A stretch of DNA of 64,000 nt from Minisyncoccota bacterium (GTDB taxonomy: Bacteria; Patescibacteriota; Minisyncoccia; Phycocordibacterales; XYD1-FULL-46-19), in contig JBBABX010000001.1 in assembly GCA_041657405.1 (NCBI GenBank), positions 106,316 to 170,315 on the forward strand. The letters are read 5' to 3'. The translations under genes and the position numbers were made by a program. Shown here piece after piece: positions 31,533 to 52,118 of this stretch. Positions within the stretch are counted from its first letter, which is position 1, and the number at the start of each line of letters is the position of its first letter. The notes beneath the pieces were generated by a model, which was given only the letters and a program-made list of their open reading frames with translations, made no database searches and had not been told where the DNA came from.

Positions 31533-31534
31533 TT

Positions 31535-31957
31535 TTAAAGGTTTAGATTAAATTGGACTAAATCTGGATTAATTATATAAAGAATTAAATAAGAAAAGCC
31601 AGCGATTGCTAATCCCCAAAAAGCATCTTTTAGTCTTTTCTTTGCTTTTGATTTGCTTGAGATCACATCAGTCATCATATATTCGAAACCAGCCCAAACA
31701 ATCATAATAACGGCCGCTGAAAAAACTATTACAAAGAATGTTTGGTAAGCTCCCTTAAGATAAGTTGTTAGTTTTATAGGTTCTTTTGCTATTTCTCCGA
31801 TCCCTGTTAAAGCGCTGGGTTCTAGAAGAATATATCCAGTTTTATTTTCTTGCTGTGCGGAAGCTTTAAGAGCCAAAGTTAAGTAACTAAGAAAATATAA
31901 ATAAATCAAACTGTAAAAAAAATTTTTTAATTTAATTTGAATCATTATTAAAGTCAA
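31535..31957 (-). CDS. VirB2/TrbC-like pilin candidate
   Basis: long signal peptide ending ALKASA|QQ; ~105-aa mature part with two hydrophobic helices separated by a basic loop (SSKSKAKKRLKD), the VirB2 topology; sequence family unverified. Confidence 0.4.
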   Translation of the reverse strand: MTLIMIQIKLKNFFYSLIYLYFLSYLTLALKASAQQENKTGYILLEPSALTGIGEIAKEPIKLTTYLKGAYQTFFVIVFSAAVIMIVWAGFEYMMTDVISSKSKAKKRLKDAFWGLAIAGFSYLILYIINPDLVQFNLNL

Positions 31958-32963: not shown

Positions 32964-33372
32964 TTTTATTAAACTTTCCAGTTCCGCTGTTTTTAAAATC
33001 TCCTAAGGCGGTGGCTAAGGCTTGGGCAGCCAAGGGTGAAATGGAACCAGCAACATCTTCAGCATAAGTAATTGCCAATAATATTATAACACTAGAAGTC
33101 CAAGCGGGTAAGCTGTTAATAACGGGAAAAAACTCCAAAAGAAATGACCCTCCCATAGTCAAAGCTTTGTTGGGCTTTGCAAAACTTAGACCTTTTAATT
33201 TAAACCAAAACCAAAAAGTTAAAAAAGACCAAAAATTTATGAAAGGATTTACTAACCAACCAATCGTTCCCACAGAGATAAGATCAATGAGGGCTTGCAG
33301 GCCATCATAAATTAGGGCAACTATTACCATGAAGATCCCGATTATCGGATTTATTCTCAATTTTAACTTCAT
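32947..33372 (-). CDS. small polytopic membrane protein (T4SS-associated)
   Basis: 3-4 TM helices; immediately upstream partner of the VirB4-like ATPase operon segment. Confidence 0.4.
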   Translation of the reverse strand: MKLKLRINPIIGIFMVIVALIYDGLQALIDLISVGTIGWLVNPFINFWSFLTFWFWFKLKGLSFAKPNKALTMGGSFLLEFFPVINSLPAWTSSVIILLAITYAEDVAGSISPLAAQALATALGDFKNSGTGKFNKIAAIK

Positions 33373-33373
33373 T

Positions 33374-35197
33374 TTAAGATAATTTTTGTTGTTGGGTAGC
33401 CGCCAACTCTGCTTTGGCCTTTTTAATTGCTAAAATTTGTGACGGATCGGAAGTGATTATTTGATCTTCGGTATAAGAAGCGATAACCTCAATGGCTACT
33501 CTTTTAAGACCAGCAATAAAAATTCCACGACCAATAGAAGCCTCTAAAAGAAAATACTTTTCTTCCTCGGTTAAATTAAAGGTTTTTTGCACAGCTTCTA
33601 TTGAGGCTGGCGATTGTTTTAATAAGATTTGAATTGAAGAGTTTTGAATAATTGGCGCGCCATATTGTGATTTCATAAAATCTTCCACATCTTGAGTAAT
33701 TGTGGCTACTCCTAGATAATATTTACGTCCTCTTTTTGCTAAAGAATATAAAAAAGAAGCTGTATCTTCTGATTTCATCATCCACCAAGCCTCATCCACA
33801 ACCAAAAGTCTTTTTCGTAAATTGCGACGAATAGAACTCCAAATATGTTGCATTACAATATACATTGCGACTGGCTTGAGCTCATCTTCCATATCTCGGA
33901 TGGAGAAAACCACGAATTTTTTATTGATATCAACATTTGTAGGTCTGTTCAAAAAACCAGCCCAAGTGCCTTGAGTATATTTTAAAAGACGTTGGGCTAG
34001 AGATTCCCCTCCTTCCATTCCTGCCAAAACCAGTTCTAGGTCAGAAAGCAAGGGGGCGGAAACTTTAGTAAAATCTGAATCGGGGGTGATATCTTTAAGG
34101 GCGTAAGTTTCAGAGATGGCATTATCTAGAATAGAATCTTCTTCGGGGCTTAAGCCTCCAAGCATTAAACGAAAAAGACCAACTAAGTTGATAATATTTG
34201 AGCGTAAGATATCAGCTGGGGACTCATCTTCTCTGGGGAAAGGTAGGTCAAAAGGATTAATATGGTGTTCGGAGGTAAGGGAGATGTTAAAATAGCGTCC
34301 CCCAACTGCTTCAGCCAAAAATTCATATTCGCGTTCGGGGTCAAGGACAATGATTTCAGTATCAAACATTAAGCTGCGCAAGATTTCTAATTTAGTAGAA
34401 TAAGATTTTCCAGAACCAGATTTGGCAAAAATGACGGAATTATAGTTTTCCAAAGAAAAACGATCAAATATAACCAAAGATGAGTTGTGTAAATTTCGTC
34501 CAAAAAGAATTCCTTTATTAGAAGTTAAATCAAAAGAAATAAAAGGAAAGAGGCTGGAAAGCGGGGTTGAATTCATTTTATAATTTACATTTAATTGGTC
34601 GGTAGCAAAAGGGATAACACTCTTAAAACCGCTTTCTTGCAAATAGGTGGCAGTTTTAAGATAGATCAATTTTGAATCCAAAATTGATCTAATCTCATTT
34701 TCTATCTTATCCAACTCGTCTTCCTCGTCGCCATAAATAGTTATATAGAGACCAACAGCAAAAATTTTCTCAGTTGCTTGCTGAAGTTGGTCGCGAAGAT
34801 TTTCGATATCGGCTTGCGCGGTGTCAAGTTGGGGGTCGCGAACCATTCCCTTCATTGCTCTTTCTTGGATTTGGCTTTCTACTTCGGCAATTTTCTTTTG
34901 CAAAGCACGCAGAGTGGAGGTAGTATCAAGGGGATGAATAAAAATAGAAACATCAAAGATGGTGTCTAAATTAATAACTGGTGAAAACCATTCTTCCGGT
35001 AAAAAACGAGGATAAGAAATAACATATAAAGTGCGAATAACCTTTCCTCCCAGGCTGATACTTTTAGGGGTGATGCGCAAAGCTGATGGGGCGATAATAT
35101 CTTTTAACTCTAAAACACCCATTTCATAAATATCTTGCGGCATAATAGGCGTGATAATTTCTTTCTTTTTTTCTTTTTTAAAAGGTAGAGATAACAT
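33374..35197 (-). CDS. VirB4/TraC-like type IV secretion ATPase, C-terminal ATPase portion
   Basis: Walker A AKSGSGKSYS followed by VLDPEREY; DEAW Walker B (LLVVDEAWWMM); ORF begins with ATG immediately after the stop of 35198..35839. Confidence 0.75.
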   Translation of the reverse strand: MLSLPFKKEKKKEIITPIMPQDIYEMGVLELKDIIAPSALRITPKSISLGGKVIRTLYVISYPRFLPEEWFSPVINLDTIFDVSIFIHPLDTTSTLRALQKKIAEVESQIQERAMKGMVRDPQLDTAQADIENLRDQLQQATEKIFAVGLYITIYGDEEDELDKIENEIRSILDSKLIYLKTATYLQESGFKSVIPFATDQLNVNYKMNSTPLSSLFPFISFDLTSNKGILFGRNLHNSSLVIFDRFSLENYNSVIFAKSGSGKSYSTKLEILRSLMFDTEIIVLDPEREYEFLAEAVGGRYFNISLTSEHHINPFDLPFPREDESPADILRSNIINLVGLFRLMLGGLSPEEDSILDNAISETYALKDITPDSDFTKVSAPLLSDLELVLAGMEGGESLAQRLLKYTQGTWAGFLNRPTNVDINKKFVVFSIRDMEDELKPVAMYIVMQHIWSSIRRNLRKRLLVVDEAWWMMKSEDTASFLYSLAKRGRKYYLGVATITQDVEDFMKSQYGAPIIQNSSIQILLKQSPASIEAVQKTFNLTEEEKYFLLEASIGRGIFIAGLKRVAIEVIASYTEDQIITSDPSQILAIKKAKAELAATQQQKLS

Positions 35198-35839
35198 TTA
35201 AGTAGTTAAATTAGGAGTTTGATTTTCTCCCGGGTTATACATTTTAAAATAAAGTTCAATCATTTCTTCGGTTCCTAAAATATCTGCGCGCAAACCAACT
35301 CGTGACAGTCCTCCCTTAACAACATTGATTCGTTGATTTAATTGTTCTACGTTTTCATCAAAATCGTTGTTTAAGGTAGTTTTTTGGGGTTTTTTGTTAA
35401 CCATGCTAGTTATTTTTGAAATAATTCCTTCCCCACCCTTTTTAATAATCGGCGGAGTATAAGGTATTACAATAAAAAAACTTTTAGTCATAACATTATT
35501 TCTTTCGGTAAAAACTCTTATAAATTCCATATATTCCTTAATTTGGATTTTCAGCAACTCGTTTGTTTGTTCGATCATCCGTTGCTCAAGAATGGAAATA
35601 TAAGGTTGAATGTCCAAACGTCTTGATTGAATATATATTTGAACGAGAAAATCAAGCGAATTTAGAAAGTTTTGATAACCAAAAAGGATTGCTTTTTTTT
35701 CGTCTTCTGATTTTAGACCAAAATTTAAAGATGAAACCATTAAAACAGAACGCATGGAATTATCTTTAAGAATCAGAACGCCGTTGCGAATCTCTTTAAT
35801 AGGCACAAAATCTTGAGTTGTTTTTCTTCTTTCGGGCAT
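35198..35839 (-). CDS. VirB4 N-terminal (CagE_TrbE_VirB-like) domain encoded as a separate ORF
   Basis: pattern ...DFVPIKEIRNGVLILKDNSMRSVLMVSSLNFGLKSEDEKKAILFGYQNFLNSL... resembles VirB4 N-terminal domains; its TAA stop abuts the ATG of the ATPase ORF. Confidence 0.5.
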   Translation of the reverse strand: MPERRKTTQDFVPIKEIRNGVLILKDNSMRSVLMVSSLNFGLKSEDEKKAILFGYQNFLNSLDFLVQIYIQSRRLDIQPYISILEQRMIEQTNELLKIQIKEYMEFIRVFTERNNVMTKSFFIVIPYTPPIIKKGGEGIISKITSMVNKKPQKTTLNNDFDENVEQLNQRINVVKGGLSRVGLRADILGTEEMIELYFKMYNPGENQTPNLTT

Positions 35840-35844
35840 TTTAT

Positions 35845-36282
35845 TTATTGTTCATCATTATTCAACCTTTTAACATCCAAACTCCAAGCAAGTTCATTCA
35901 GTTTACTTTCCGATAAACGTGGTAATTTTAGGTTTGCAGCTTGGTCAGAGTTAACAATATTCGGAGTGTTTTTGGGGATTTTTGAAGTATTTTTTTCGTC
36001 TTTTTTCCAAATATAAAGTTTGCTGCCCAAGGAATATTTGACAAAAGCTTCTAAAACTACAATAAATGGTTGGCCGTTATATTTTATAAATGCTAGAGCT
36101 AGGGCTAAGGCGGCTACTCCAGCAATAGGAATTATTTTTAGGATAAAAGGTAGGGGTAGCCAGACATAAAGAATAAAACAAATTCCTCCTCCACCAACTA
36201 AGTACAAAAATTGTTTAAAGGTAAGTGGTCCAAAAATTTTATCCTCCATCTCAATAAATTGTGGTATTTGAAATTGTTGCAT
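35845..36282 (-). CDS. VirB3-like small membrane protein candidate
   Basis: two TM helices, ~145 aa, positioned just upstream of VirB4 as in many T4SS loci. Confidence 0.4.
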   Translation of the reverse strand: MQQFQIPQFIEMEDKIFGPLTFKQFLYLVGGGGICFILYVWLPLPFILKIIPIAGVAALALALAFIKYNGQPFIVVLEAFVKYSLGSKLYIWKKDEKNTSKIPKNTPNIVNSDQAANLKLPRLSESKLNELAWSLDVKRLNNDEQ

Positions 36283-36360
36283 AGATTTCCCTTATAATTA
36301 TAACTTAGTTCAACTTTAAATAAAACAACTCGCTTTATTCAGCGAGTTGTTAATAAAAAT

Positions 36361-36897
36361 TTAAGTTATTGGCTCACGATAGGGATCATGCCTCGGAGGC
36401 GTTTCTGTTGTTTTTTCTGGGGTGGTGGCGGTTGATTTGTCAGTCACTTCTACTTTTTCTCGTGGTAATCCATAATTAGAAGTTGTTTTTTGAGAAAAAG
36501 TATCTGCAGTCGAAATCTCCTCTTTTTTTTCTGGTTGACTTGTCTCAAGAGATTCAGGCTTGGCAGATGTGTTTTTAGGTTGGACAGTCGCTTCTTTCAT
36601 TGCAGTTCTTATTTTATTCAAAATTTCCTGATTTAATTCATAAGTAACGAGATTGATCACATCAGTAGAAAGCCCAGTCTCTTTAGTTAGGGTATTATTA
36701 AAATCATTTGGTTTAATAATACCCACAATAAATAAACGAACTACAATGGCCATTTTCCCAATCTGATCAATATTTAAATGGTGTTTTTTTCCAATTTTAA
36801 TTAGAAGGGAGGCGGTTTCTTCGGAATCAAGAATTTCCACTACATTTTCTGGTAAATTACTTTTTGCTTGTTTGATTTGTTCCTTGTTTAAATTCAT
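36361..36897 (-). CDS. hypothetical protein with Thr/Pro/Glu-rich C-terminus
   Basis: ORF within the T4SS-like operon. Confidence 0.4.
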   Translation of the reverse strand: MNLNKEQIKQAKSNLPENVVEILDSEETASLLIKIGKKHHLNIDQIGKMAIVVRLFIVGIIKPNDFNNTLTKETGLSTDVINLVTYELNQEILNKIRTAMKEATVQPKNTSAKPESLETSQPEKKEEISTADTFSQKTTSNYGLPREKVEVTDKSTATTPEKTTETPPRHDPYREPIT

Positions 36898-36915
36898 AGA
36901 TATTAAATCAATTTA

Positions 36916-39291
36916 TTACCAATCGGTTGACCCTCTCCCAGCTCTCATGTATTCATAACCAGGAGAAGTTGAGTCACCTATTATATTTGTCTTAATTGTT
37001 GCCAGCAATGTATCAAGCTTATCCTCATTTATTATGGCGTTCAAGCTGCTTGGCCCTAAGTTAACACTAACCTCAACTCTTTCCAGAACATCATCGGGAA
37101 GTTTGGCGATTTCATTGGGAAGAATTTTTTTATCTCTAATTATCGTAGCAACATCTGCTTTTGTGGGAGCTTTTTTCAGGTCTTCGGCTATACTCTTGAG
37201 TTCTTCTTTTCTGTTTTCCTCTTTTTCCTCTTTTTCTTCTTTTGTTTTTGTTTTTTTGTCTTCCTTTAATTTTTTCCGAGCGTCTTTGTCGGTGCCCAAG
37301 ATATTAAAACCAGAAACTAGGCCAGCTTTTGATATTGTTGATGAAACATAATCATTAATACTCATAAGAGGCCTTGGGACAGATGGTTGACCTTTGAAAT
37401 CAAGGGTATCAGCTACCCACTTTTTGCCTTCTTTTATTTTTTCTTTTCCGGTTTCATAGGTTTTTGTTACTCCTCCAGGAACGGCAGTTGCTCGCTCTAT
37501 TCTTCGGGTGCTTGTTTTTAAAGCCTTGGTTAAAACATTAGGTCTTTCGCTTAATTTTGTTCCTGCCCACTGATCAATCTTGACAGAGCCTTTTCTGATC
37601 GCTTTGCCTCCGAGATTTAATCCTGCTGAACCATATCTTACCATAGAGGCCTGAGACTTGCCGGCCCATTTCTTAGAAAAGTCAAGCCCCTTAGCGCCGA
37701 ATTTTTGAGCAATAAAAATACAAGAAGCAATCATTGCCATCACAATCAGTTGTATCATTGTAATCTTCATTAAACCGGTTCCAATTCCAGCGTCTTGGGC
37801 TAAGGTGGATAAGCCCTTATCTCCTAGAATTTTAAAAACAGCAAAAAGCGGAATAAGAAAGGCGGGAGCAAAGAAAGATTGTTTTAGTAAAGCGTCTTGC
37901 CATTTTGTGTAAGAATCTTTAAACATTGGAATGAGTCTAAGTGTGAGACCGATTGGTGAGAAAACATAAACAAATAAAAGTGTAACAGTTCGAATAAGAA
38001 ACATAATAGACCCGGCAAGTAAGACAAAAGAGGCCATTAAGATAATAATAATGCTACCCAAAGAGCCTATGACAATTTGAAAAAATCCAAGTCTTGTTGT
38101 TGTGACCTCGTCTCCTTCATAATCATCAATTTCATCAATTGGCACAACGTGGGCGCTTAGATCCAGCTTGCTTACTAAAGCTGTTCCAATATTTGCGTTC
38201 ACTCGGTCTAGAATCCAAGCTTCGTTGGCTTGGGGGTCGTAACTCATTCGAGAATAAAACTCATAAGCTATAACATTACTAGCATCAATTACTACTCTTA
38301 CTAGAAAACCACTAAAATTTACTAGTAAAGCAATTATAATAACCTCTACAATTAATTTTTTACTATTACCACCAATAGAGATATCAAAAATAACACTTAT
38401 GGCAATATAGAGCAGAATAAAAATGAAAGATAGATTGGCTAAATCACGCATCACTTTCCACGCAGCATCAATTCCTGTAGATGCTATAAGGCTTTTAAAG
38501 CTTACAATGGAAATATAAATAGAAAGGTCAAAGATAGAACTAGAAATCCACAAAATAGTGCCAAATATTTTTAAGATGAGAGTAGAAATACCAGCGGCAA
38601 TAGATAGAACACAAGCCATCGGATTAATTCCAAACCAGTAAAGACATTGGTTTTTATTTTCTTCAATTTCCTTAATAATTTCTTCATTGGCTTCATTTGC
38701 AATTTCTTGTCTTCCTGCAATATGTTCAAAATATTCTTCGTCTGTTCCTTCCCAATACTCTGGTATTGCAATATCTCTCTCTTCCGGATTGGTTCTGATT
38801 AATTCCTGAAATCTATTCATAGCATATCTGTTTTCTTCTGTTGTTCCGATTCCAGGTTTTTGAAAACTAATACCGTTGTCTATTGCTTCTTGGCGTGCCA
38901 GCAGATAGTCTTTTGTGGTCCTATCCCCTCTTTCTAGAAGGAGATCAATGGTTGATCTTTGTTCAGGGGTCCATGGGACTTGTTCTATTTCCTCTTTAAT
39001 TTCATTTAGTTTTCTGTCGTAATAATAAAACTTCTCATCAAGTTCATTGTTTGTTGTGTTGCCAATACCACCAGTTACCCGAGTCCAAAAACTGTCGTCA
39101 CTATCTATTCCTGAAGGCAACTTTTCCATATTGTTTACAAGCGTACCTAATTGAGCAGTGAGTTTTTCCTGTTCAGTCCTAGTATCTGGTATTGGACCTT
39201 GGGCTGAAATCTTAGAAGGAAGACTATAAAAAACGACAATTCCTAAAAGAATAAAAAGTAGAATCTTGTTTATCTTCAATATAGACTTCAT
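36916..39291 (-). CDS. VirB6/TrbL-like polytopic membrane protein with N-terminal extracytoplasmic domain and C-terminal Lys/Glu-rich tail
   Basis: signal/TM then ~200-aa soluble domain, then 8 or more hydrophobic helices; C-terminal KKLKEDKKTKTKEEKEEKEENRKEELK. Confidence 0.45.
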   Translation of the reverse strand: MKSILKINKILLFILLGIVVFYSLPSKISAQGPIPDTRTEQEKLTAQLGTLVNNMEKLPSGIDSDDSFWTRVTGGIGNTTNNELDEKFYYYDRKLNEIKEEIEQVPWTPEQRSTIDLLLERGDRTTKDYLLARQEAIDNGISFQKPGIGTTEENRYAMNRFQELIRTNPEERDIAIPEYWEGTDEEYFEHIAGRQEIANEANEEIIKEIEENKNQCLYWFGINPMACVLSIAAGISTLILKIFGTILWISSSIFDLSIYISIVSFKSLIASTGIDAAWKVMRDLANLSFIFILLYIAISVIFDISIGGNSKKLIVEVIIIALLVNFSGFLVRVVIDASNVIAYEFYSRMSYDPQANEAWILDRVNANIGTALVSKLDLSAHVVPIDEIDDYEGDEVTTTRLGFFQIVIGSLGSIIIILMASFVLLAGSIMFLIRTVTLLFVYVFSPIGLTLRLIPMFKDSYTKWQDALLKQSFFAPAFLIPLFAVFKILGDKGLSTLAQDAGIGTGLMKITMIQLIVMAMIASCIFIAQKFGAKGLDFSKKWAGKSQASMVRYGSAGLNLGGKAIRKGSVKIDQWAGTKLSERPNVLTKALKTSTRRIERATAVPGGVTKTYETGKEKIKEGKKWVADTLDFKGQPSVPRPLMSINDYVSSTISKAGLVSGFNILGTDKDARKKLKEDKKTKTKEEKEEKEENRKEELKSIAEDLKKAPTKADVATIIRDKKILPNEIAKLPDDVLERVEVSVNLGPSSLNAIINEDKLDTLLATIKTNIIGDSTSPGYEYMRAGRGSTDW

Positions 39292-42200
39292 TTATCTTTC
39301 TATATCAATTATTTTTATAACCTCAGAATTATCATTGAAACACAATACCTTGTAGATAAGCTCAGAGCGTCTAATTGTTAAAGTAGAATTGCTTTCATTA
39401 AGGCTGACATCTAACCAAGTTATTCCTCGTTCGGTCAATTCATTATTTAATTTTATCACAATATCATCTAACGACGTAGCAGAAAAATTAATCACATTAC
39501 CGTCTATGTTTATTTTAATTTGACCAGTAACAGATATATTTGAAAAATCAAAGGTTAATTTTTCAGTAAGATAATCTGTTGTAATTGTTGTGGTAGGGGT
39601 AATTTCCTTTGGTTCTCCATCGCCTTCATTAATTGTAACAGAACCTTTCATTGGAATAGGTAAAGAAATTATCTTTTCCCCCAATTTCCCAAGATATTCC
39701 ATTTTTTTCATTGCTATTATTATTTCTCCATTTTTTCCTCTACCCAACCAATTATTATCAACTTCGCAAGTGGAATTCGGTGTAAACCAAACTAATTTAA
39801 TTTGATTAGGTTTTTGACCGGAACTGATTTCTGCTATGCTTGGCGATAAAGCTTTTGTTTGGACTAATGGCGGTTGTCCCTGAAATGAGTTTTGAGCTTG
39901 GGTTAGTAGAATGTTTAAAATATTTAGCATTAACTCACTATTATTTTCGTCAGACTCACTATTGTTCCAAAGACTAGATAATTGAGAAAGTAAATTACTC
40001 CAGTTTAAACTATTTTCACCAGTTCCAGTTGTCCCTCCAGTTCCAGTCTCTCCAAAACCACCCGTTGAAAGAGTGCCAGTATTGTTTTGCTGGGTTTGTT
40101 GGACAGTTTGTTGAGTTTTGCTGGGGTCAATAACAGGGATTTTTTGTCCATCAGCACCAGGGCCTGGTTTGGTATTTTGCCCAGAACCAGCAGCAGCAAT
40201 GGTTGGGGTTTCATAGTTGCCAGTTGCTGATTCGTGGGCGTCAGGAGCACTATCTGTTGGTTGCGACTCAGGTCCCCCAGGTACAAGATAGGTGTTATAT
40301 TTAGCTAATAAAGCACTAGACAAAGTGTCTTTGACAATTATCCCCGGCGCGCCTTCTCCGGCAACGGTCTCCCATTTTCGGCAAGCTACCAAATTTCCGT
40401 CTTGGTCTTTAATTTCATCAACACATTTACGTCCAGAGGGCAAGATTCCTTGTCCGGCTAAGTATTCATCTCGGGCATTAGCTTCAGCGATATTTTGTGC
40501 TCGGTTTTTAGCTTCTATGGCTAGCATGCTTGAGCCATAAGGATTATTTTCCGGATCGGTTATTTTAAACCACATATTCCAAAAATCAGTAGCTGACGAG
40601 GAATCAGTATTTACTGACTGATTTTCAGCTGAAGCGGTTTTCCAAAAAGCTAGCCGACTTAAGGGTTTACTGATAAAGTTTGGCAAATAAGCCAACAAAC
40701 GTTTGCTAAAACTAGGAGAATAGGCGGTTTGAATGGCATTTTTGTTTCCAGCCTCTTTAAATTTTTTAATGTCTTCTTTACTGATTGTTGAATCAATTTG
40801 GCTTAAACTTTCATCATTTATTAATTCAGCCAATCCTTCTTTATAAAGATTTTTTGAATTATTGATATCTGCCAAAACAACTTGTTTCGCTTCCTCATCA
40901 ATTTCATTCAAGTGTTCCCCTAAATTTTTAGGAAAAGCTTGAGTGTTGACATATTGTCCGTCAACAATTTTAGTGTAACCAGTTTTAATTAAGCTGTCTG
41001 GGTTGTCTTTACCAGCGATATCATTAGCATATTTTGCCAAGGCTTCCAGTCTGGTGCGATTGGCATTAGCCTCGTCTGCAATTTTCATTGATTCAATACT
41101 GGTCTGGATGCGTCTGATAGCACGTAGATGGGTACAAATTTGGATACTCAAATCTCGGATTTCTTGAGTGGTTTTGTCAATACTTGCGGTTTGTTTGTCG
41201 GTATTTTGTGTCGCAGTCATTAATTGTCCTTGTTGTTCTACAACTGGAACATATAAACCACCACCAACTAGACCGGTTACTGACCCAAGAATTCCTCCTC
41301 CTCCGCCCAAGAATTGTCCAACAATGGGAATATTAGAAACTTGATCTAAAATTCCACCTGGTATTTTATCCAAGGCGGCGCTGACAATATCGCCTGGTGC
41401 ACCGGATAAGGCGGCTTGTAGAATAGAGTTGTCACCGCCTAAAAGGAAATTACCCAAAGCGTTATCGGTTAAATTAGGCAAGATGCCGCCAAAACCATCG
41501 CCAAGTGTTGACAAGGTGTGATTGATGGCATTAGATCCCAACCCTTCAAAAATATTATTTAAATTGCCTGTAGAAATACCATTTACTAGATTAGACAAAG
41601 CATCACCGCCAATATTACCAAAAATATTATTGATAGCACCATCGCCTAATATTGGTAAAATATTATCCATCATATTAGTTCCCAATGAATTAATCAGGTC
41701 TCCCGCAGCAGCACCGCCAAGTTCGGAAAATACTATGCCCCAGTTTTCGTTGGAGATACTGCTTAAAATATTTTCAAAGTTACCAGCTCCAAGATTGCCA
41801 AATACGGAATCTAGTCCAAGTCCGCTCATGCTAGGGATCACATCATTTAAAAAATTGGGACCAAGACTTTCAATTAATTTGCCTGCGGTAGAAATACCGA
41901 CACTCTCAAATATGTTTTCTAAACTATCCTTACCCAAACTATTCATTACTCCTTGTATTAAATCTCCTGAACCACTAGCGATTATATTATTTACACTACC
42001 ACTGCCTAGATTATTGAAGACTTGTTCTAAGATGCTGTCATTTCCACGTCTTAATAAATTATCTATTCCAGCTTGGTCTAATTGTCCGATTAAGGTGTTT
42101 ACAGTTTCGTCTTCTAAATTACCCAAGAATGAATCGAAGCCGGTAACGGACATATTGGAGAAAATATTATTAATTGAAGGTTCCACCAAAAGATCGGCGA

Positions 42201-43419
42201 TATTATTAAGGGTGTTATTATCTAAACGAGGAACAATATTATTTATATTTGAACTACTTAAATTGTCAAAAACCGTATTTAGAGAATTGAAAGACATTTG
42301 CTCTAATAAATCAGATAAAGCTGAAGTGTTCATTTGTGAAAAATCTTGATTAATTTGAGTAGCGCTCATACTAGAAATTATTTCCTGTAAATTTTCGGTG
42401 GAAATGTTTGAAGGGTCAATTAAATTACCACCTAGGTTGACGCTAGAATCAGCATTAACGATATTAATCAGACTGATTTTTTTGATTTTTTTGCCAAGCC
42501 AAGAAAAGAATGATTGAACTTTATTTTTTACCAACTGTAAACTATTTTGATTGTCTTGATTTGTTGACAAGGCTACATTTCCTCCTGACACAGAGGATTT
42601 TTTTTCCTTAAATTGAATATGCCAATGGTTACCTTCATCTAAAAAGATATCGCCAGTATCCAAGACATAATAAGTCCCAAGATTAGAAGTATAAGAATCA
42701 ACCATATGATTATTTACATATTGTCGACTTTGGGTAGTTGGAGAAATATCTACTACGTTTTGTCCAGGTCCATGAGTGCGGTGTCCAGTTTCAGTGCCGC
42801 CTGTTAATAAAATACCTCCTCCTCCCATCTCTTGATTCATTTCTCCCAACCTGTCTATAGAAAGTTGTGGCAATCCCGCAACATCAGTGCAGCCTCCTGG
42901 AACTGTTCTGTAATCTCGGCCGTTACATGGCTCCTTGTTGACATTAATGCCTTGAGAAGCCAAAGTTTCTCTGGTTGCTTGTTCGTTATCACCCAAAGTG
43001 CCACTACTGCCAACTGGACTACTTCCACTGGGTGGAGTAAGCCCACTCCCTAAATTAGATATTCCACCAAATCCACCAACTTGAGCTTGACAAGCTTCAA
43101 AATCAGCTTGTTGTAATTGTAATAATCTTTGCGCTTCTTGTTGGGCTGTTTGGATATTTGATTGGCTTAATTGAGTAATCGCGTTTTGCGCTGTTCCCGG
43201 ATTTCCACCAATATTTCCCAGGCTGTTTAAATCGTTATTTAAAAAATATTCTAAGTCTAATGATCCTGTTGGAGAAGTTCTAGAATCGTCAAAAATAACA
43301 GAAGTCGGGTCATTCCATAGTCCCTCATCTATTATAAGAGCAAAAACTTGGTTAACAAAACCAAAAATTAATAAGACTGAGATAATAAATAAAAAATTTT
43401 TCGCTTTTTTAAATTTCAT
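39292..43419 (-). CDS. giant secreted repeat protein (1375 aa) with N-terminal possible LAS-type (M15-like) peptidase motifs and central Gly/Asn-rich ~18-aa tandem repeats
   Basis: start moved to MKFKKAKNFLFIISVLLIFGFVNQVFA (signal peptide); repeats of form ..LG.G...NIF..; near the N-terminus TETGHRTHGPGQNVVDI ... EGNHWHIQF (H-x-D ... H-W-H). Confidence 0.65.
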   Translation of the reverse strand: MKFKKAKNFLFIISVLLIFGFVNQVFALIIDEGLWNDPTSVIFDDSRTSPTGSLDLEYFLNNDLNSLGNIGGNPGTAQNAITQLSQSNIQTAQQEAQRLLQLQQADFEACQAQVGGFGGISNLGSGLTPPSGSSPVGSSGTLGDNEQATRETLASQGINVNKEPCNGRDYRTVPGGCTDVAGLPQLSIDRLGEMNQEMGGGGILLTGGTETGHRTHGPGQNVVDISPTTQSRQYVNNHMVDSYTSNLGTYYVLDTGDIFLDEGNHWHIQFKEKKSSVSGGNVALSTNQDNQNSLQLVKNKVQSFFSWLGKKIKKISLINIVNADSSVNLGGNLIDPSNISTENLQEIISSMSATQINQDFSQMNTSALSDLLEQMSFNSLNTVFDNLSSSNINNIVPRLDNNTLNNIADLLVEPSINNIFSNMSVTGFDSFLGNLEDETVNTLIGQLDQAGIDNLLRRGNDSILEQVFNNLGSGSVNNIIASGSGDLIQGVMNSLGKDSLENIFESVGISTAGKLIESLGPNFLNDVIPSMSGLGLDSVFGNLGAGNFENILSSISNENWGIVFSELGGAAAGDLINSLGTNMMDNILPILGDGAINNIFGNIGGDALSNLVNGISTGNLNNIFEGLGSNAINHTLSTLGDGFGGILPNLTDNALGNFLLGGDNSILQAALSGAPGDIVSAALDKIPGGILDQVSNIPIVGQFLGGGGGILGSVTGLVGGGLYVPVVEQQGQLMTATQNTDKQTASIDKTTQEIRDLSIQICTHLRAIRRIQTSIESMKIADEANANRTRLEALAKYANDIAGKDNPDSLIKTGYTKIVDGQYVNTQAFPKNLGEHLNEIDEEAKQVVLADINNSKNLYKEGLAELINDESLSQIDSTISKEDIKKFKEAGNKNAIQTAYSPSFSKRLLAYLPNFISKPLSRLAFWKTASAENQSVNTDSSSATDFWNMWFKITDPENNPYGSSMLAIEAKNRAQNIAEANARDEYLAGQGILPSGRKCVDEIKDQDGNLVACRKWETVAGEGAPGIIVKDTLSSALLAKYNTYLVPGGPESQPTDSAPDAHESATGNYETPTIAAAGSGQNTKPGPGADGQKIPVIDPSKTQQTVQQTQQNNTGTLSTGGFGETGTGGTTGTGENSLNWSNLLSQLSSLWNNSESDENNSELMLNILNILLTQAQNSFQGQPPLVQTKALSPSIAEISSGQKPNQIKLVWFTPNSTCEVDNNWLGRGKNGEIIIAMKKMEYLGKLGEKIISLPIPMKGSVTINEGDGEPKEITPTTTITTDYLTEKLTFDFSNISVTGQIKINIDGNVINFSATSLDDIVIKLNNELTERGITWLDVSLNESNSTLTIRRSELIYKVLCFNDNSEVIKIIDIER

Positions 43420-44116
43420 TTTTATCTTTTTTAAAAGTGATAACAATCTTATATTCTGGACCAATAACACCTGTTTTTTGTAAGAAATCGTTTAATTTGG
43501 TTGTCAAATTAATTATTGTTCCCGTTTCATTAAGATAAGTTTGTCCGCTTTGTAGGGCTAATACGGGTTCATCTAGGGCTTTTTCCATTTGTCCAGCTAA
43601 AAAGGAAAGTTTTTGTAAAGAAACAACCAAATCTTTTTGGAAGACCGCTGTTTCGGCGGGTGCTGGTAATTTTATTAATCTGTTAATGATTGAATCAAAA
43701 GTTAGACGGGCAGAAACTATATCTTTGATCAAAATTGGGTCATTATTATCCATTGCTTCTAACATTATTCGAACCTCGTGTTTGCGATTACCAGAAAGAG
43801 GCTTAAGAATATCAATTAAATTTTGGACATATGTTTGCAAATCATCTTCTGTAACTGTCGCCAACACGTCTAATTCAATTTCTTCTTCAAATAAACTAGT
43901 GACATTAAAATTTTGTAAAGCCCCCTTTTTTTCTAGATTATCTTCTACAATATTTCGCAAATTGCGATTTTTTTCTATAATCTCGGCCAAAATTTCTGCT
44001 TCATATTTTTCGCGTTGAGCACGATTTTTAAAACCAACATACCACAAAACCCCCAAAGTTATAATCAGGAGTATAACTATTAAAAATATTATTTTGCGAC
44101 TTGGTAATCGATTCAA
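43409..44116 (-). CDS. bitopic membrane protein (VirB8-like architecture, unverified)
   Basis: N-terminal TM KIIFLIVILLIITLGVLWYVGF + ~200-aa soluble domain; first gene of the minus-strand operon. Confidence 0.4.
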   Translation of the reverse strand: MNRLPSRKIIFLIVILLIITLGVLWYVGFKNRAQREKYEAEILAEIIEKNRNLRNIVEDNLEKKGALQNFNVTSLFEEEIELDVLATVTEDDLQTYVQNLIDILKPLSGNRKHEVRIMLEAMDNNDPILIKDIVSARLTFDSIINRLIKLPAPAETAVFQKDLVVSLQKLSFLAGQMEKALDEPVLALQSGQTYLNETGTIINLTTKLNDFLQKTGVIGPEYKIVITFKKDKNEI

Positions 44117-44216
44117 AATTATAATTCTATTATACCGTTTGTTGAGCTGTTTGGTAAATGTTTTTTCATCAAAAAAAGTGGATAAAAAAGACGGATTGAA
44201 TTATGATAGAATAGAA

Positions 44217-45074
44217 ATGTTTAAATTTTTCGAATTAAATAAATTAAGATTTTTTTTTAGGTTGAGTTATCAAAGTTTTTTGCTTTTTATCATAACCTTA
44301 CTGTTTTACTGGCCGTTTGTTTCCATGGGTTTTGTTTTTGAAAAAAATGTTGCCGAAGGCGAAGAAGATTTAAGTATAAAAAATTTACAGATTGTTCTCA
44401 ACCAGGACGAAAAGACGCAAGTCGCTGAGTCCGGCGCCGGCTCGCCTGGTCTGGAAACCAATTTTTTTGGTGCCAGGACTCGTGGGGCATTAACTCGTTT
44501 TCAACGTCTAAACAGTATTTCTGGTGAATATGGCTTGGTGGGACCTAAAACTAGGTTGGCTTTAAATAGAAAACTAGCCGAAACATATTTTGCCAAAACC
44601 TCAACTTCTACAAGCGAATTCTCTGGCCAACTGTTGGAAATTCAAAAGCCCTTTGTTTTGAAGCTTCCTTTTGGGGTGCGTGGTAATGCTACTCGTTTAG
44701 CCGACAAAAAATCACCTTATCTTAAGCGTTTAGAAAAAAAAGAAGAATCTGGCAATAAAAAACTGGAAATTGTTGGTAAGCCAAAAATTGTCTCCCTATC
44801 GCCTACCAGAGGTGTCTATGGTACCCGTGTGACGATTAAGGGTGAAAATTTCACGAGTGTTGGCAATACAATTTATACCGGCTATAGTATTTTAAAAAAT
44901 ATTTCTTCCTCAGACAAAAAAACATTGACTTTTACTGCTAACGCTTTTGGAACCGAATATCAGCAATCTCGTGGTCTAATTAATTATTTTAAGCCATTTT
45001 CAATTCCATTCTTGGTTTATGTTAAAAATACTAATGGCCAAAGTAATAGTTTAATATTTAATTATCAGTTTTAA
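44217..45074 (+). CDS. secreted peptidoglycan-binding domain protein (PG_binding_1) with IPT/TIG-like C-terminal domain
   Basis: FGARTRGALTRFQRLNSISGEYGLVGPKTRLAL matches the PG-binding-1 repeat; start moved from 44094 (which overlaps the divergent gene) to MFKFF..., giving a signal-anchor. Confidence 0.55.
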   Translation: MFKFFELNKLRFFFRLSYQSFLLFIITLLFYWPFVSMGFVFEKNVAEGEEDLSIKNLQIVLNQDEKTQVAESGAGSPGLETNFFGARTRGALTRFQRLNSISGEYGLVGPKTRLALNRKLAETYFAKTSTSTSEFSGQLLEIQKPFVLKLPFGVRGNATRLADKKSPYLKRLEKKEESGNKKLEIVGKPKIVSLSPTRGVYGTRVTIKGENFTSVGNTIYTGYSILKNISSSDKKTLTFTANAFGTEYQQSRGLINYFKPFSIPFLVYVKNTNGQSNSLIFNYQF

Positions 45075-46072
45075 TGAAAAAACGTTCAACTCAACTCTTT
45101 TTTTTACTTATGGCCATTGTTTTGTTTATGGTCGGCTGTCCTGTTGCTAAAGCGCAAGTGGGGCAAATTCCCTTTGGTGGTTTGATTGTTAAAGTGTTGC
45201 CTTGCTTGGTTAGTGGCAATATCATGATTACCCACACGTCAGTAGCTGGCTCGCCAATAGTTATGTATCAGCCAGGGGTTAGTAGGCTTTATTCATATTT
45301 TCAATTAACACCTGGCAATTGGATGCTTGGTAATACCTTGGGGATGGCGCCTTGTTTGCAACTTGTTCCTTTTCCACCTTTTGTCATCAATTTAGGCACC
45401 TATCCTTTAATTTCTATGGTAGGAACTTCGGGTGCGGGGATGACGGCTGGATCGGGCGCTGATGTTGGTGGTTTGAATAATGACGACTTTGGCAGTCTTA
45501 GTAGGGCTGATAATGAGGATATTACACCAGCGGTTTATGAATCAATAGAGCCTTGTGGTGAAAGTGATAACACAACTTCGTCTTATATTATTGCTAATGA
45601 GGGTTGGCGAAACTCTCCATATTTTGATTCATTAGGAAATCGCACGATTGGAGTGGGTCACCTTATTACTGGCGATGAGCCTTTTAATGCCAATCAGATT
45701 TTAACCAACGATCAGGTGGCGGCTTTGTATGAGCAAGATTATATTAGGGCAAAAGAGGAAGCCATTTTGGCCGCCGCCGCTCACGGAGTTGATTTTGATT
45801 CCTTGTCAGACACTAGGCAGGCGGTTTTGATAGACATGTCCTTTAATATGGGAGCACAAGGAGGAGGAGGCTTGGCGGGTTTTCATAATATGTGGAGTGA
45901 AATTGCTAAAGATAATTGGAACGGGGCGGCGAATGAAATTTTAGACAGCCAATACGGTAGTCAATTAAAAGAACGTTCTCGTCGCAACGCTGAAGCTATG
46001 CGAACTGATGATCGTTCAATTCTTGATAAACACATTAATTCCGATTTTCAAGCTTGGCAATTTTGTGAATGA
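45074..46072 (+). CDS. secreted phage-type lysozyme (GH24/T4-lysozyme-like) domain protein
   Basis: signal peptide; EGWRNSPYFDSLGNRTIGVGHL matches T4 lysozyme EG..Y.D..G..TIG.GH catalytic region. Confidence 0.65.
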   Translation: MKKRSTQLFFLLMAIVLFMVGCPVAKAQVGQIPFGGLIVKVLPCLVSGNIMITHTSVAGSPIVMYQPGVSRLYSYFQLTPGNWMLGNTLGMAPCLQLVPFPPFVINLGTYPLISMVGTSGAGMTAGSGADVGGLNNDDFGSLSRADNEDITPAVYESIEPCGESDNTTSSYIIANEGWRNSPYFDSLGNRTIGVGHLITGDEPFNANQILTNDQVAALYEQDYIRAKEEAILAAAAHGVDFDSLSDTRQAVLIDMSFNMGAQGGGGLAGFHNMWSEIAKDNWNGAANEILDSQYGSQLKERSRRNAEAMRTDDRSILDKHINSDFQAWQFCE

Positions 46073-46093
46073 ACTTAATTTTTTAATTTCAAT

Positions 46094-46900
46094 TTAGTTT
46101 TTAAATCGTTTTGTTTTTAAAAGGCATAACCAGTCAGGTAATTTTAGGTCTTCAGCGCGAAGATCGGGGTTCAAGTTGCAAAGCTGCCAATTTTCTGCTG
46201 GCAATTTGAGATGATTTCCTAGTTTTTTGCGTTTTTGGGAAAAACCTTGTCGTAATAAATCAAAGAATCTAGATTCTTCTTCAGCTTGGAAATTATTTCT
46301 GGAGATATTATGAATTAAGAGAATAGCTGAATCTACTTTTGGTTTAGGGACAAAGGCTCCAGATGGCACGGTCTTGATATACTTTGGTTCACCAAAGGTT
46401 TTAACTGAAAGTGATAAAAGACTTTCTTTTTCATCGCGGGCGACAATTCTTCTGGCGACTTCTTTTTGGAGCATTAATACCATTTTTGTCGGCTGGATTT
46501 TTTCTTCGCTCAAAAATTTTCGGATAACTTGACCGGTAATATAATATGGAATATTGGCGATTAATTTGTAGTTTATCTTTAGTTTTTTAGTTTTTGGAGA
46601 TGAGAAAGAAGATAAAAGAGTAGAAAAATTTGTTTTTAAAATATCGCCATAAATAAGAATAAATTGCTTATCCTTAATTTGGTTTGCAAACTTTTTAGAT
46701 AAAAATTCAATTAAGCGGTTATCTTTTTCCACCGCGATGACTCGAGCACCGACGGCAAACAAGGCTTCGGTTAATATCCCCTGTCCCGGACCAATTTCCA
46801 AAACCAATTCATTTTTATGCAGATCAGCGGACTTGATCATTTCTTTTATTGCTGATTTAGATTTTAGCCAATTTTGTCCAAGTGTTTTTTTCGCTTTCAT
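46094..46900 (-). CDS. rsmA: 16S rRNA (adenine1518/1519-N6)-dimethyltransferase
   Basis: LGQNWL..., LEIGPGQGILTEAL SAM-binding motif. Confidence 0.9.
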   Translation of the reverse strand: MKAKKTLGQNWLKSKSAIKEMIKSADLHKNELVLEIGPGQGILTEALFAVGARVIAVEKDNRLIEFLSKKFANQIKDKQFILIYGDILKTNFSTLLSSFSSPKTKKLKINYKLIANIPYYITGQVIRKFLSEEKIQPTKMVLMLQKEVARRIVARDEKESLLSLSVKTFGEPKYIKTVPSGAFVPKPKVDSAILLIHNISRNNFQAEEESRFFDLLRQGFSQKRKKLGNHLKLPAENWQLCNLNPDLRAEDLKLPDWLCLLKTKRFKN

Positions 46901-46919
46901 TGTATCTCGTTTATATTTT

Positions 46920-48839
46920 TTAAATTATCGTCCACAACCCATTTTCTGTTTCTAACAATTCTTCATCAATATCAAAAATAAATTCCGAAGGCAAGTTGAC
47001 TTGTCTCGAACCGAAAACTAGTCGTGATTGGGCGTAAGTAAGATAAAGTTTTTGACGAGCACGAGTGATTGCAACATAAAACAATCGTCGCTCCTCTTCT
47101 TCGTCGCGATCTGTTTCGCCGAAGCCTTGATGTGGAAATAAACCTTCTTCCAAACCAGTGACAAAAACTGTGTCAAATTCTAGGCCCTTAGCGGCGTGAA
47201 CAGTCATTAATTTAGCACCGTTTTTATTTTGGTTAAGTGAATCTTGTTCAGAAGTTAGCATAATTTCTGCCAACATTATTGGTACCGCTTCGTCTGACGC
47301 TAGGTGATCATATTTTACCGCTAAACTCGCGAACTCGCGCGCATTTTCTAAACGTTCTAAATTATCTTCCCCGCCCTTTTTTAATTCTTCTTCCAATTTA
47401 GTTTTTTCCAGAACAAATTTAATCAATTCTGAAGGTTTATGACTTTGGGCAAAGTTGGCAATTTCAGTAAGTAGTTGTCGGAACTTGGCAATTTTTTCCT
47501 TAGTCGCGGTTGGTAAAGTTTCTTCAGCGCCGTTAGCGATTTTGGTGAGGGTCACTTGTCCCAAGCCACGTGGTGGCACATTAATGACGCGTCTCATTGC
47601 CTCAAAGTCGGTTGGATTAAGGGCTACTTTAATATAAGAAATAATATCTTTAATTTCTTTGCGTTCAAAAAATCTGGTACCCAAGACTTGGTATATCACA
47701 CCAGCTCTCAAAAAAGCTTCTTCCAACACCCGTGACTGGAAATTGGCACGGTACAAAATAGCAATCTGTTCCGGATTGGTTCCTTCTTTTATCATTTCTC
47801 TGGCGCGCTCAGCAATAAAATTTGCCTCGTCGCTTTCTTCCAAACCGGTGTAAAGTCCGATTTTAGCCCCACCTTTTTTCTTAGTGAAGAGATTTTTGTC
47901 AAAACGGTGAGTGTTTTTAGCAATAATTCGATTAGCAGCAGTCAAAATTGTTTCGGTGGAGCGATAATTTTCTTCTAAGAGAACAGTCTTGGCGCTCGGG
48001 TAATCTTTTTCAAAACGTAATAGGTTGGTATAATCAGCTCCGCGCCAGCCGTAAATTGATTGGTCCATATCGCCGACGACACAAATATTTTTGTATTTTT
48101 CGGCTAATAGATTAACTAGTTCATATTGAATAACATTGGTATCTTGGTATTCGTCCACTGAGATATAGGAAAAACGTTCTTGGTATTTATTAAGAATTTC
48201 TGGCTGAGTTTTAAATAATTGAACTACCCAAACTAATAAGTCATCAAAGTCCAAGGCATTTTCTTTTTTGAGTAGTTTAGTGTATTCAGTCCAAACGATA
48301 GAAACAGTTTTAGAGTAATAATTTGCCGCATTGGTTTGATACTCATTCAAGCTAACACCATCCCCTTTTTGACGAGAAATAGCTGAGAGGATTTTGTTAG
48401 GCTCAAATCTTTTAGGGTCAACACCGACTTTTTTCATTGCGCTTTTGATTTTGGAAATTGAATCATTGCGGTCAAAAATAGAAAAAAACTTAGGCAAGTC
48501 TAGGGCGCGGTGTTCATTTCGTAAAATATAGACGCAAAGCGCGTGAAAAGTGGAAACAAATGGCTCGGATCGTTTTAGATCTTGCGATAGTTCTATTTTG
48601 TTTTGATTACTTTTGATGAACAAAGCTAGGATTCGTTCTTTCATCTCGCGAGCTGCTTTATTGGTAAAAGTGATGGCTAAAATTTGATCTGGTGAGACTC
48701 CAGATTTAACCAGATGCAAGATACGATAAGCAACGGTTCGCGTCTTGCCAGCTCCAGCACCAGCGATAACCAAGAGTGGTCCGTTTTTATGTTCGACCGC
48801 TTCACGTTGTGGCGTATTTAATTCGTTAAGATAAAACAT
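46920..48839 (-). CDS. pcrA: ATP-dependent DNA helicase PcrA/UvrD family
   Basis: LNTPQREAV, AGAGAGKTRT Walker A, helicase motifs II-VI (VDEYQDTN, ...). Confidence 0.9.
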   Translation of the reverse strand: MFYLNELNTPQREAVEHKNGPLLVIAGAGAGKTRTVAYRILHLVKSGVSPDQILAITFTNKAAREMKERILALFIKSNQNKIELSQDLKRSEPFVSTFHALCVYILRNEHRALDLPKFFSIFDRNDSISKIKSAMKKVGVDPKRFEPNKILSAISRQKGDGVSLNEYQTNAANYYSKTVSIVWTEYTKLLKKENALDFDDLLVWVVQLFKTQPEILNKYQERFSYISVDEYQDTNVIQYELVNLLAEKYKNICVVGDMDQSIYGWRGADYTNLLRFEKDYPSAKTVLLEENYRSTETILTAANRIIAKNTHRFDKNLFTKKKGGAKIGLYTGLEESDEANFIAERAREMIKEGTNPEQIAILYRANFQSRVLEEAFLRAGVIYQVLGTRFFERKEIKDIISYIKVALNPTDFEAMRRVINVPPRGLGQVTLTKIANGAEETLPTATKEKIAKFRQLLTEIANFAQSHKPSELIKFVLEKTKLEEELKKGGEDNLERLENAREFASLAVKYDHLASDEAVPIMLAEIMLTSEQDSLNQNKNGAKLMTVHAAKGLEFDTVFVTGLEEGLFPHQGFGETDRDEEEERRLFYVAITRARQKLYLTYAQSRLVFGSRQVNLPSEFIFDIDEELLETENGLWTII

Positions 48840-48896
48840 GGACTAGTAGATACTATCATAATATAATTGAAACATATAAATTCTAATTTTTATTTT

Positions 48897-49337
48897 ATGG
48901 CAGAAAATTTTTTAGTTAGTAATAAAATGATTGAAGCGGAAATCGTGGAATTACAAAAAAAAATTGAAGAAAAACGTAATCAATTGGAAAAACAAAGTGG
49001 CATTATGGAAGAAAAAAGTCTTGTCCGTGAAGCGTTCCAAGAAATGATTGCCAAAAAGATAGAAGAGGAACCAGAAACAACCCCGGCTTCAAAAGTTGAT
49101 TTAGTTGGTGAGCCTCAAAAAACTTCATGGATAAATGTTAGCGCTAGTTATCTGGATCGCTTGGATGAAAAAACAATATCAAAATTAAATATTTATATTG
49201 ATGAAATCAACCAACAAGGTATTGTTCGCACCTTAAAAAAAGCAATAACCGATGAACCTTTTGTTATTGATGCATTACATGACATTCTAGTTGACAAACT
49301 TTATGAAGAATTAAAAAATCGAGGGTTGATTAAATGA
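48897..49337 (+). CDS. hypothetical coiled-coil protein, translationally coupled to the coupling-ATPase gene
   Basis: ORF-track start 48867 is TTG; ATG (MAENFLV) at 48897; its stop lies 1 nt before the next ATG. Confidence 0.4.
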   Translation: MAENFLVSNKMIEAEIVELQKKIEEKRNQLEKQSGIMEEKSLVREAFQEMIAKKIEEEPETTPASKVDLVGEPQKTSWINVSASYLDRLDEKTISKLNIYIDEINQQGIVRTLKKAITDEPFVIDALHDILVDKLYEELKNRGLIK

Positions 49338-49338
49338 T

Positions 49339-51708: not shown

Positions 51709-52118
51709 ATTGAACAGATTTTTAATTAAGTGTTCGGAAGTGTTTAACTAAAAAACTTTCATAAATTTACAACCCAAGAGCCTCCAAAGTTTCTCTCATC
51801 ACGTTTATCTTTTTTACTTTAAATTTTGACTTTTTCCGTCAAATATTTTGAATTATTTGTGTTTTGTTTGCAAAATAAAGCTTTAAAAGTTATCCACTTC
51901 TTGTTGAATTTTTATTGAATTTTGTCTTATTTTGGTCTAAAATAACCAAGTGCTTGATTTTTCTGGATAAGAGAATAAATTAACACTTTTTACTGGTTGC
52001 GGTCGTCATTAAGCACAAAATTTGACTTATTTTACGTAAATCTAAAAAGTCTGAGCCCGAAAAGGAGGCAAAGGCTAAAAAGTCTTTATTTTTATACACT
52101 ATTTTAAATAGGCGGGTT

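Follow-up and report, generated by a model that had tools for sequence, protein, structure and literature searches.

A putative cell-wall hydrolase associated with a Patescibacteria type IV secretion system and its undescribed scaffold family

The VirB1-type hydrolases that accompany the type IV secretion systems (T4SSs) of monoderm bacteria, such as PrgK of pCF10, TraG of pIP501 and TcpG, combine a membrane anchor with SLT, CHAP or LytM domains. Here we analyze a window of 64,000 nucleotides from an ultrasmall and host-dependent Minisyncoccota bacterium (GenBank assembly GCA_041657405.1, contig JBBABX010000001.1, positions 106,316 to 170,315 of the forward strand), whose T4SS operon encodes a protein of 1375 aa, referred to below as the giant protein. 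Like the VirB1-type hydrolases, it is operon-encoded, multi-domain and predicted to be exported, and it would provide a monoderm T4SS with a hydrolase domain acting on peptidoglycan. It differs from them in carrying an LAS-like head, a stalk of 30 repeat units and a 660-aa C-terminal module (the C-module) without known relative. A Pfam scan of the giant protein detected no SLT, CHAP or lysozyme domain of the VirB1 kind, although relatives sharing the C-module do carry Phage_lysozyme domains. Taken together, its sequence features suggest a T4SS-associated, putative wall hydrolase mounted on an undescribed family of scaffold proteins.

The T4SSs of Patescibacteria are related to the conjugation machines of monoderms and possess VirB2-like pilins (Quinonero-Coronel et al. 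2025; PMC12102498). Relaxases are mostly absent from them, the locus often lies near dnaA, and TrsD homologues are reported beside virB4 (PMC12102498). The same 2025 survey of Patescibacteria T4SS loci describes no adhesin, few VirB1 homologues, a single VirB5 homologue in a genome with a system of the Gram-negative type, and nothing resembling the giant protein (PMC12102498). In the one Patescibacterium that is genetically tractable, the T4SS is essential for epibiotic growth (PMC10633639). VirB5 is a further point of reference: having docked on VirB6, it finishes at the tip of the pilus (PMC12857230). With VirB5 proteins (TrwJ, TraC, TrbJ) the giant protein shares Sec export, a helix-rich composition and a gene placed directly before that of VirB6, and its system, too, encodes a VirB2-like pilin. 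It is, however, three to six times larger, neither Pfam nor PDB sequences yielded a VirB5 match, and its fold could not be matched to that of VirB5. The resemblance is confined to position and logic.

The scaffold family and its operon slot

The giant coding sequence is complete and spans positions 39292..43419 on the minus strand, as do all parts of the protein described below, in a single open reading frame (ORF) of 1375 codons plus stop. As the initial annotation held, it is by far the largest ORF of the window (36% G+C), the runner-up being an 825-aa class A penicillin-binding protein (PBP). An in-frame GTG 51 nt upstream would extend it to 1392 aa; the ATG is nonetheless the likely start, since 13 out of 13 orthologues align from the Met-Lys that it encodes. 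A database entry for a hypothetical protein, from a Candidatus Paceibacterota metagenome-assembled genome (MAG), is 100% identical to it. Residues 1-27 (MKFKKAKNFLFIISVLLIFGFVNQVFA, positions 43339..43419) make up a Sec-type signal peptide, presumably cleaved before the Leu that follows. Strong hydrophobicity is restricted to this N-terminus (Kyte-Doolittle value of 2.55 at residues 12-30, with no other segment above 1.6) and, because it is the sole strongly hydrophobic stretch, the giant protein is most likely Sec-exported and either soluble or peripherally attached, which agrees with its earlier description as secreted. The C-terminus ends in ...KIIDIER and lacks the LPXTG motif, hydrophobic segment and charged tail of a sortase-type anchor, setting the giant protein apart from adhesins of the PrgB type.

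The gene had also been described as embedded in a T4SS locus, and it does indeed lie inside a tightly packed minus-strand operon (30297-44116) for a T4SS of the Gram-positive type. Read from upstream, this operon encodes a 235-aa membrane-anchored protein, the giant protein, a 791-aa VirB6-like protein, a 178-aa protein, PrgI (VirB3-like), a 213-aa TrsD/VirB4-N-like protein, the 607-aa VirB4 ATPase, two proteins without assigned function, a VirB2-like T4SS_pilin (31535-31957) and, at its end, a 411-aa protein. Synteny was compared between the window and five other loci, whose C-module proteins are at most ~30% identical and differ in architecture. All five loci preserve the slot, with genes for a protein of ~230 aa, the scaffold protein, a polytopic protein of ~760-870 aa and a protein of ~160-300 aa; the similar-sized upstream protein is found in four of the five, the contig of the remaining locus (L014) ending too early upstream. 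As far as each locus reaches, PrgI, a TraC-like protein and VirB4 come after the slot, directly in most loci and with one extra gene between in L004.

The C-module itself can be divided into three stretches. Residues 706-1050 (40270..41304) contain a Gly-rich hinge, the invariant motif LYVPVVEQxGQLM, a helix bearing Cys762 and a beta-hairpin with C999 and C1013; conservation across the family reaches widest at about residues 940-1050, as estimated from profile positions 215-350. A low-complexity linker rich in Gly, Pro, Thr and Gln, modelled as disordered, occupies residues 1051-1135 (40015..40269). In residues 1136-1375 (39295..40014), helices lead into a beta-rich domain, flanked by C1218 and C1360, which is modelled with a predicted local distance difference test (pLDDT) value of 70-88 and gives only generic FN3/Ig-like matches in structure comparison. 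An insertion of ~75 aa in this last part is confined to the subfamily of long orthologues.

The C-terminal half had been thought to be without obvious relatives, which does not hold. A word-indexed search using a profile of this half brought in a single protein. An exhaustive HMMER search of 1.84 billion cluster representatives returned 1011 matches with E-values up to 1e-3, none of them annotated; 159 of these have E-values of 1e-10 or below, and 77 of 1e-30 or below. The 150 best matches include 29 proteins shorter than 600 aa, probably mostly fragments, together with 36 of 600-720 aa, 34 of 720-1000 aa, 43 of 1000-1250 aa and 8 longer than 1250 aa. Searches of the C-module profile against PDB sequences, and of the whole giant protein against PDB, gave nothing meaningful, and tblastn of the C-module found no match in the plasmid collection. 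A pattern scan located nine species-representative genomes, all of them Patescibacteria and mostly Paceibacterota or Vogelbacteria.

What precedes the C-module varies across this family. Among its closest relatives, an LAS-like head is present in 18 proteins (P0001-13, P0029, P0032-35), whereas the head position is taken by a Pfam Phage_lysozyme domain in four others (P0030, P0031, P0036 and P0042) and, in a further three (P0037, P0039 and P0041), by a domain homologous to the product of a separate lysozyme gene of the window (45074-46072). The domain of this lysozyme matches all seven swapped heads in phmmer comparisons, with E-values of 6e-28 to 6e-48, and a link of the Rosetta-stone type appears to tie the lysozyme gene to the T4SS. 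Proteins of several architectures occupy the operon slot: P0041 has a lysozyme head and a stalk with a 12-aa period (z ~13) along with the C-module; P0045 (654 aa) is headless; P0059 (1335 aa) has a repeat region with a 15-aa period; and an 861-aa protein of the L014 MAG carries MgtE_N-like repeats and no recognized head. A 15-aa periodicity (z ~10) replaces the 12-aa unit at residues 130-800 of P0059 and 150-640 of P0044. Different helical-repeat stalks thus seem to be inserted at one site in a common scaffold family.

The cysteines of the family point to where that site may be. All eight cysteines of the giant protein are invariant in the 13 orthologues, and three local pairs can be proposed from their placement: C165-C177 in the head, C999-C1013 in the predicted hairpin and C1218-C1360 around the terminal beta-rich domain. 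This leaves C110, in a predicted N-terminal helix (residues 88-114, 43078..43158; pLDDT ~83), and C762, in the long helix of the C-module (within the tripeptide QIC). All members examined, whether of the LAS type, of the lysozyme type or more distant, have the N-terminal helix and its Cys. In P0041 and P0059 the cysteines number exactly six, corresponding to C110 and C762, the hairpin pair and the pair of the beta-rich domain. In the scored members of ~650 aa, the two helix cysteines are 56-80 aa apart, as opposed to 652 aa in the giant protein. The N-terminal helix and the C-module are therefore probably one scaffold, linked by a Cys110-Cys762 disulfide, and the head and stalk (residues ~115-715) would be an insertion in a permissive loop just before LYVPVVEQxGQLM. 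It is the existence of cargo-less proteins of ~650 aa, with closely spaced helix cysteines and at the same operon position, that leads us to propose a structural scaffold with an insertion site.

The head domain

The head (residues 143-277; 42589..42993) is predicted to adopt the LAS-type alpha/beta fold of Hedgehog and DD-peptidases, which is shared by the Sonic hedgehog N domain (ShhN), VanX, MepA and Zn DD-peptidase. The closest structural neighbors of its model are two entries of the Sonic hedgehog N domain (6rmg_B, with a score of 6.1, and 7e2i_G, 6.0), VanX (1r44_A, 5.7), Drosophila Hedgehog (2ibg_E, 5.5) and MepA (1tzp_A, 5.5). Both motifs that had drawn attention to this region in the initial annotation are present: TETGHRTHGPGQNVVDI at residues 209-225 (42745..42795), containing H213, H216 and D224 in an H-X7-D arrangement, and EGNHWHIQF at residues 262-270 (42610..42636), containing E262, H265 and H267 in the pattern E-x2-H-x-H. 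In LAS/DD-peptidases, the zinc motif consists of H-X6-D and H-X-H with a catalytic Glu (PMC6027127). The head pattern appears close to this motif, and makes H216, D224 and H265/H267 a candidate zinc site and E262 a candidate catalytic residue. D224 and H267 fall within two predicted strands (VVDI and WHIQ), a placement that, in the model, is what would be expected of an LAS site.

Conservation of the head is concentrated on these residues. Across 26 homologues, down to ~22% identity, C177, G207, G208, E210, G212, H213, H216, D224, G256 and H265 are invariant, and C165 and E262 nearly so, E262 being kept in at least 90% of the sequences. All 13 T4SS orthologues retain H267, whose place is taken by Asp in the actinobacterial group. 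C165 and C177 are likely to form a disulfide within the head. When compared with known members of the LAS group (Sonic hedgehog N domain, VanX, MepA, the Zn DD-peptidase of Streptomyces albus and VanY/VanXY), the head stands out by its own invariant GGTExGH motif and its Cys pair.

A profile of residues 143-274, built from the 13 orthologues, reaches homologues that have no Pfam domain over the corresponding region. They include a branch of small, secreted, stand-alone proteins of 140-225 aa (140-215 aa for P0017-P0028) from Streptomyces, Pseudonocardiaceae, Planobispora and others, with the motifs TGGTE(T/A)GH-x6-H-x6-D and HWD and, again, no Pfam model; in the one locus examined (L006), the gene of such a homologue (P0021, 6001-6486) sits in an ordinary chromosomal context. 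A different association is seen in P0015 (225 aa), encoded on a 1.1-kb Joint Genome Institute (JGI) metagenome contig, in which a T4SS_pilin domain (PF18895) is followed by an LAS-like domain at the C-terminus, a fusion that would tether a hydrolase-like domain directly to a VirB2-like pilin. A metagenome scan with the head profile yielded eight loci with 40-71% identity to the head, probably orthologues, and tblastn of the head found no match in plasmid or phage collections.

The repeat stalk and the surrounding locus

Behind the head, residues 336-705 (41305..42414) form a tract of ~30 tandem helical repeats of 12 residues, of the MgtE_N type. The presence of degenerate repeats in the middle ~350 aa had been correctly recognized, although with a period of 18 aa (54 nt) that does not hold. 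Protein autocorrelation over residues 330-720 peaks at lags of 12, 24, 36, 48 and 60 (z 9-11 against shuffles), the flanks showing no periodicity, and DNA identity within the tract peaks at 36, 72 and 108 nt; the period is thus 12 aa, or 36 nt. The first 26 units (residues 336-647) are in perfect register, and a one-residue shift then leads into four or five degenerate units that extend to about residue 705. In the unit consensus, [FIL]-x-x-[LM]-[GS]-x-x-x-[LI]-N-N-[ILV], the hydrophobic positions 9, 12, 1 and 4 and the Gly/Ser cap at position 5 would fit one short helix per unit. At its start, the tract matches Pfam MgtE_N (PF03448), with E = 7e-11 and a score of 43 bits for a cutoff of 25.9. 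The orthologues match MgtE_N as well, and the repeat tract is conserved in every one of them. Beyond MgtE_N, scans of the whole giant protein against Pfam, NCBIfam and PHROGs yielded nothing, and the repeat region has no match among PDB sequences. In repeats of the MgtE_N/FliG type, as in this tract, the unit is a single helix of 12 residues whose positions 1, 4, 9 and 12 are hydrophobic. The tract nevertheless holds ~30 of these units, the whole Pfam profile spanning only 102 positions, and it is Asn/Gly-rich and presumably extracellular, as opposed to the N-domain of MgtE, which operates in a cytoplasmic setting. A role as a rod-like spacer would be consistent with this architecture.

The repeat tract had also been put forward as a substrate for length variation. 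Long orthologues (1371-1402 aa) have 22-25 units above threshold and short ones (1069-1192 aa) have 9-16, with ~122 alignment columns, or ~10 units, absent from the latter. Unit number, however, differs only between these deep subfamilies and is constant within a subfamily of 51-66% identity. At the DNA level, Tandem Repeats Finder detects no array in the giant gene, and the longest repeats measure 14-27 nt with 68-93% identity. Length variation by slippage was therefore rejected: the divergence of the DNA repeats is too great for it, and orthologues of 51-66% identity do not differ in their number of units. On the opposite strand, an ORF of 275 aa (41522-42349, plus strand) is contained entirely in the repeat tract, and most likely arises from repetitive, low-complexity coding sequence without being a gene.

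Both neighbors of the giant gene are packed tightly against it. The gene for the VirB6-like polytopic membrane protein (36916..39291, minus strand) abuts its stop codon, and encodes multiple hydrophobic segments, with a hydrophilic stretch of ~200 aa after the N-terminal one; its match to CD3337/EF1877 is weak, as is that of its orthologue to TrbL_3. On the other side, the stop codon of the gene for the 235-aa protein with an N-terminal membrane anchor (43409..44116, minus strand) overlaps the giant start by 11 nt; the one family match of this protein is a weak one, to an Rz-like spanin PHROG (E 0.008). Further along the operon, VirB4 is apparently split (33374-35839, minus strand) into the 213-aa TrsD/TraC-like N-terminal protein and the 607-aa ATPase, and the pair of TraC-like protein and VirB4 recurs in L001-L003 and L005.

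Near the operon lie genes for a type IV coupling protein, for the separate Phage_lysozyme-domain protein (45074..46072, plus strand, divergent from the operon) and for a peptidase with LysM and M23 domains, as well as dnaA and dnaN. The operon (30297-44116) ends ~1.4 kb from the latter two (26184-28875), and this origin-proximal location matches the published placement of Patescibacteria T4SSs. A group of genes for RrnaAD/KsgA, a UvrD helicase, a ~140-155-aa protein and the coupling protein is syntenic between the window (44094-53144) and both L001 and L005, despite the distance of the giant relatives in these two loci (P0009, ~30% identical, and P0059), and the LysM+M23 gene recurs in L001. 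The neighborhood thus behaves as one conserved block. Elsewhere in the window, an Rfam LOOT RNA (RF03000) is found at 62522-62642 on the minus strand, above its gathering score (67.2 bits; E 1.9e-10).

Proposed function and competing interpretations

The interpretation that we favor, and to which we assign slightly better than even chances, is that the giant protein is a Sec-exported structural accessory of Paceibacteria-type T4SSs, docked through its scaffold and displaying a wall-hydrolase head on a stalk. After export by Sec, the scaffold (residues 88-114 and 706-1375) would attach to the extracellular side of the T4SS, with the VirB6-like neighbor as its most likely docking partner. Between its two halves it would hold a cargo of ~600 residues, with an LAS-fold zinc peptidase head followed by the ~30-unit stalk. 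The head would cleave peptide stems or cross-links of peptidoglycan and thereby let the T4SS and its VirB2-like pilus pass the cell's own wall, the host wall or both, with the stalk fixing the reach of the enzyme. In this manner, a different enzyme, set in a new architecture, would take the part of VirB1. The replacement of the head by an unrelated wall hydrolase, lysozyme, on the same scaffold is our reason to see wall hydrolysis as its task, and the pilin fusion and the conservation of the catalytic Glu and His beyond the metal ligands further argue for a hydrolytic role. Cargo-less members, in turn, suggest a role of the scaffold beyond hydrolysis. The length of the stalk, and its variation among lineages, make action at a distance an attractive notion.

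Several observations weigh against this interpretation. VirB1-type activity could be supplied by two other genes already present at the locus, those for the lysozyme and for the M23+LysM protein. The His-Asp spacing of the head is 7 instead of the canonical 6, and its stand-alone actinobacterial relatives, in which the spacing is H-X6-D, have Asp at the last His position (H-W-D). The best structural neighbor of the head is Hedgehog, the enzymatic role of which is itself debated. Foldseek comparison of the head against PDB gave no significant match (best E 0.19, with the M15 endolysin Ply500 at rank 19), Pfam returned none for the head and nine homologues even at E<=10, and neither its own profile nor the actinobacterial one found anything among PDB sequences. 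Comparison of the two head profiles with ShhN by hhalign, using a verified ShhN sequence, gave probabilities of 0.3% and 2.3%; the expected motif was aligned (LTGGTExGH..H..G..VDI), if not significantly. No profile method, in short, ties the head to M15, VanY, HH_signal or M74, and the membership in M15/VanY proposed at the outset is not demonstrated. The fold that was predicted for the N-terminal region is nonetheless of a peptidase type, and the head is best described, on the basis of its model, as a new and unannotated family with an LAS-type fold and a plausible active site.

The resemblance to Hedgehog also opens the way to a different reading, in which the giant protein is an adhesin, or a stalk for recognizing the host, without catalytic function. 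Its LAS-like head would then bind peptidoglycan or some other component of the host surface, much as the Hedgehog N domain acts as a ligand, while the rod presents it and the C-module anchors the whole to the T4SS or the cell surface. We regard this as unlikely: beyond the metal ligands, all the residues expected for catalysis are conserved, E262 included; the domain that replaces the head is a lysozyme and not a lectin or Ig-type binding domain; and the protein has neither LPXTG nor a C-terminal anchor. The interchangeability of wall hydrolases at the head position would also suit a released effector that weakens or lyses the host wall, comparable to the peptidoglycan-hydrolase toxins known from bacteria-killing T4SSs, with the C-module serving for delivery or targeting. 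Epibiotic or parasitic Patescibacteria do need the contents of their hosts, and T4SS pili have been proposed as a conduit (PMC12857230). Such an effector is less probable still, since a Sec signal peptide fits poorly with the usual recruitment of substrates from the cytoplasm by the coupling protein, the presence of cargo-less members of ~650 aa in the same operon slot is more in keeping with a structural part than with a toxin, and family scans of the neighbors recognized no candidate immunity gene beside the giant gene.

It might finally be argued that the giant protein is a general envelope protein, involved in wall remodelling, division or a surface layer, which merely happens to lie beside T4SS genes near the replication origin. 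Housekeeping wall genes do cluster near dnaA, as exemplified by PBP1 (23444-25921) and the M23+LysM gene, and the stand-alone actinobacterial homologue P0021 has nothing but ordinary chromosomal surroundings. Yet the giant gene overlaps or abuts its T4SS neighbors, its slot directly upstream of the VirB6-like gene has been kept over deep divergence and through different architectures, and the head domain occurs in fusion with a T4SS pilin in P0015, all of which makes this explanation very improbable.

The position of the giant gene invites a bolder version of the T4SS accessory that we favor, although we regard it as unlikely. The scaffold might be the Patescibacteria counterpart of VirB5, seating on the VirB6-like platform, nucleating the VirB2-like pilus and riding at its tip, with a cargo slot between its halves that different lineages would fill with an LAS peptidase or a lysozyme. 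Stalks of suitable length would carry these enzymes, and the tip of the pilus would digest the host wall.

The analysis adds to the Patescibacteria T4SS a conserved and hitherto undescribed component, found in a fixed slot beside the VirB6-like gene, and the family to which it belongs points to a modular logic in which a scaffold bears a swappable hydrolase on a spacer. It also introduces a new LAS-fold domain family, as yet without a Pfam model, that extends to small secreted proteins of Streptomyces and its relatives. T4SSs are widespread in the phylum Patescibacteria, and the giant protein is a candidate wall-opening tool for a T4SS that must cross two cell walls. If the scaffold did prove to be a counterpart of VirB5, an epibiont could tap its host cell by means of a wall-digesting pilus tip.

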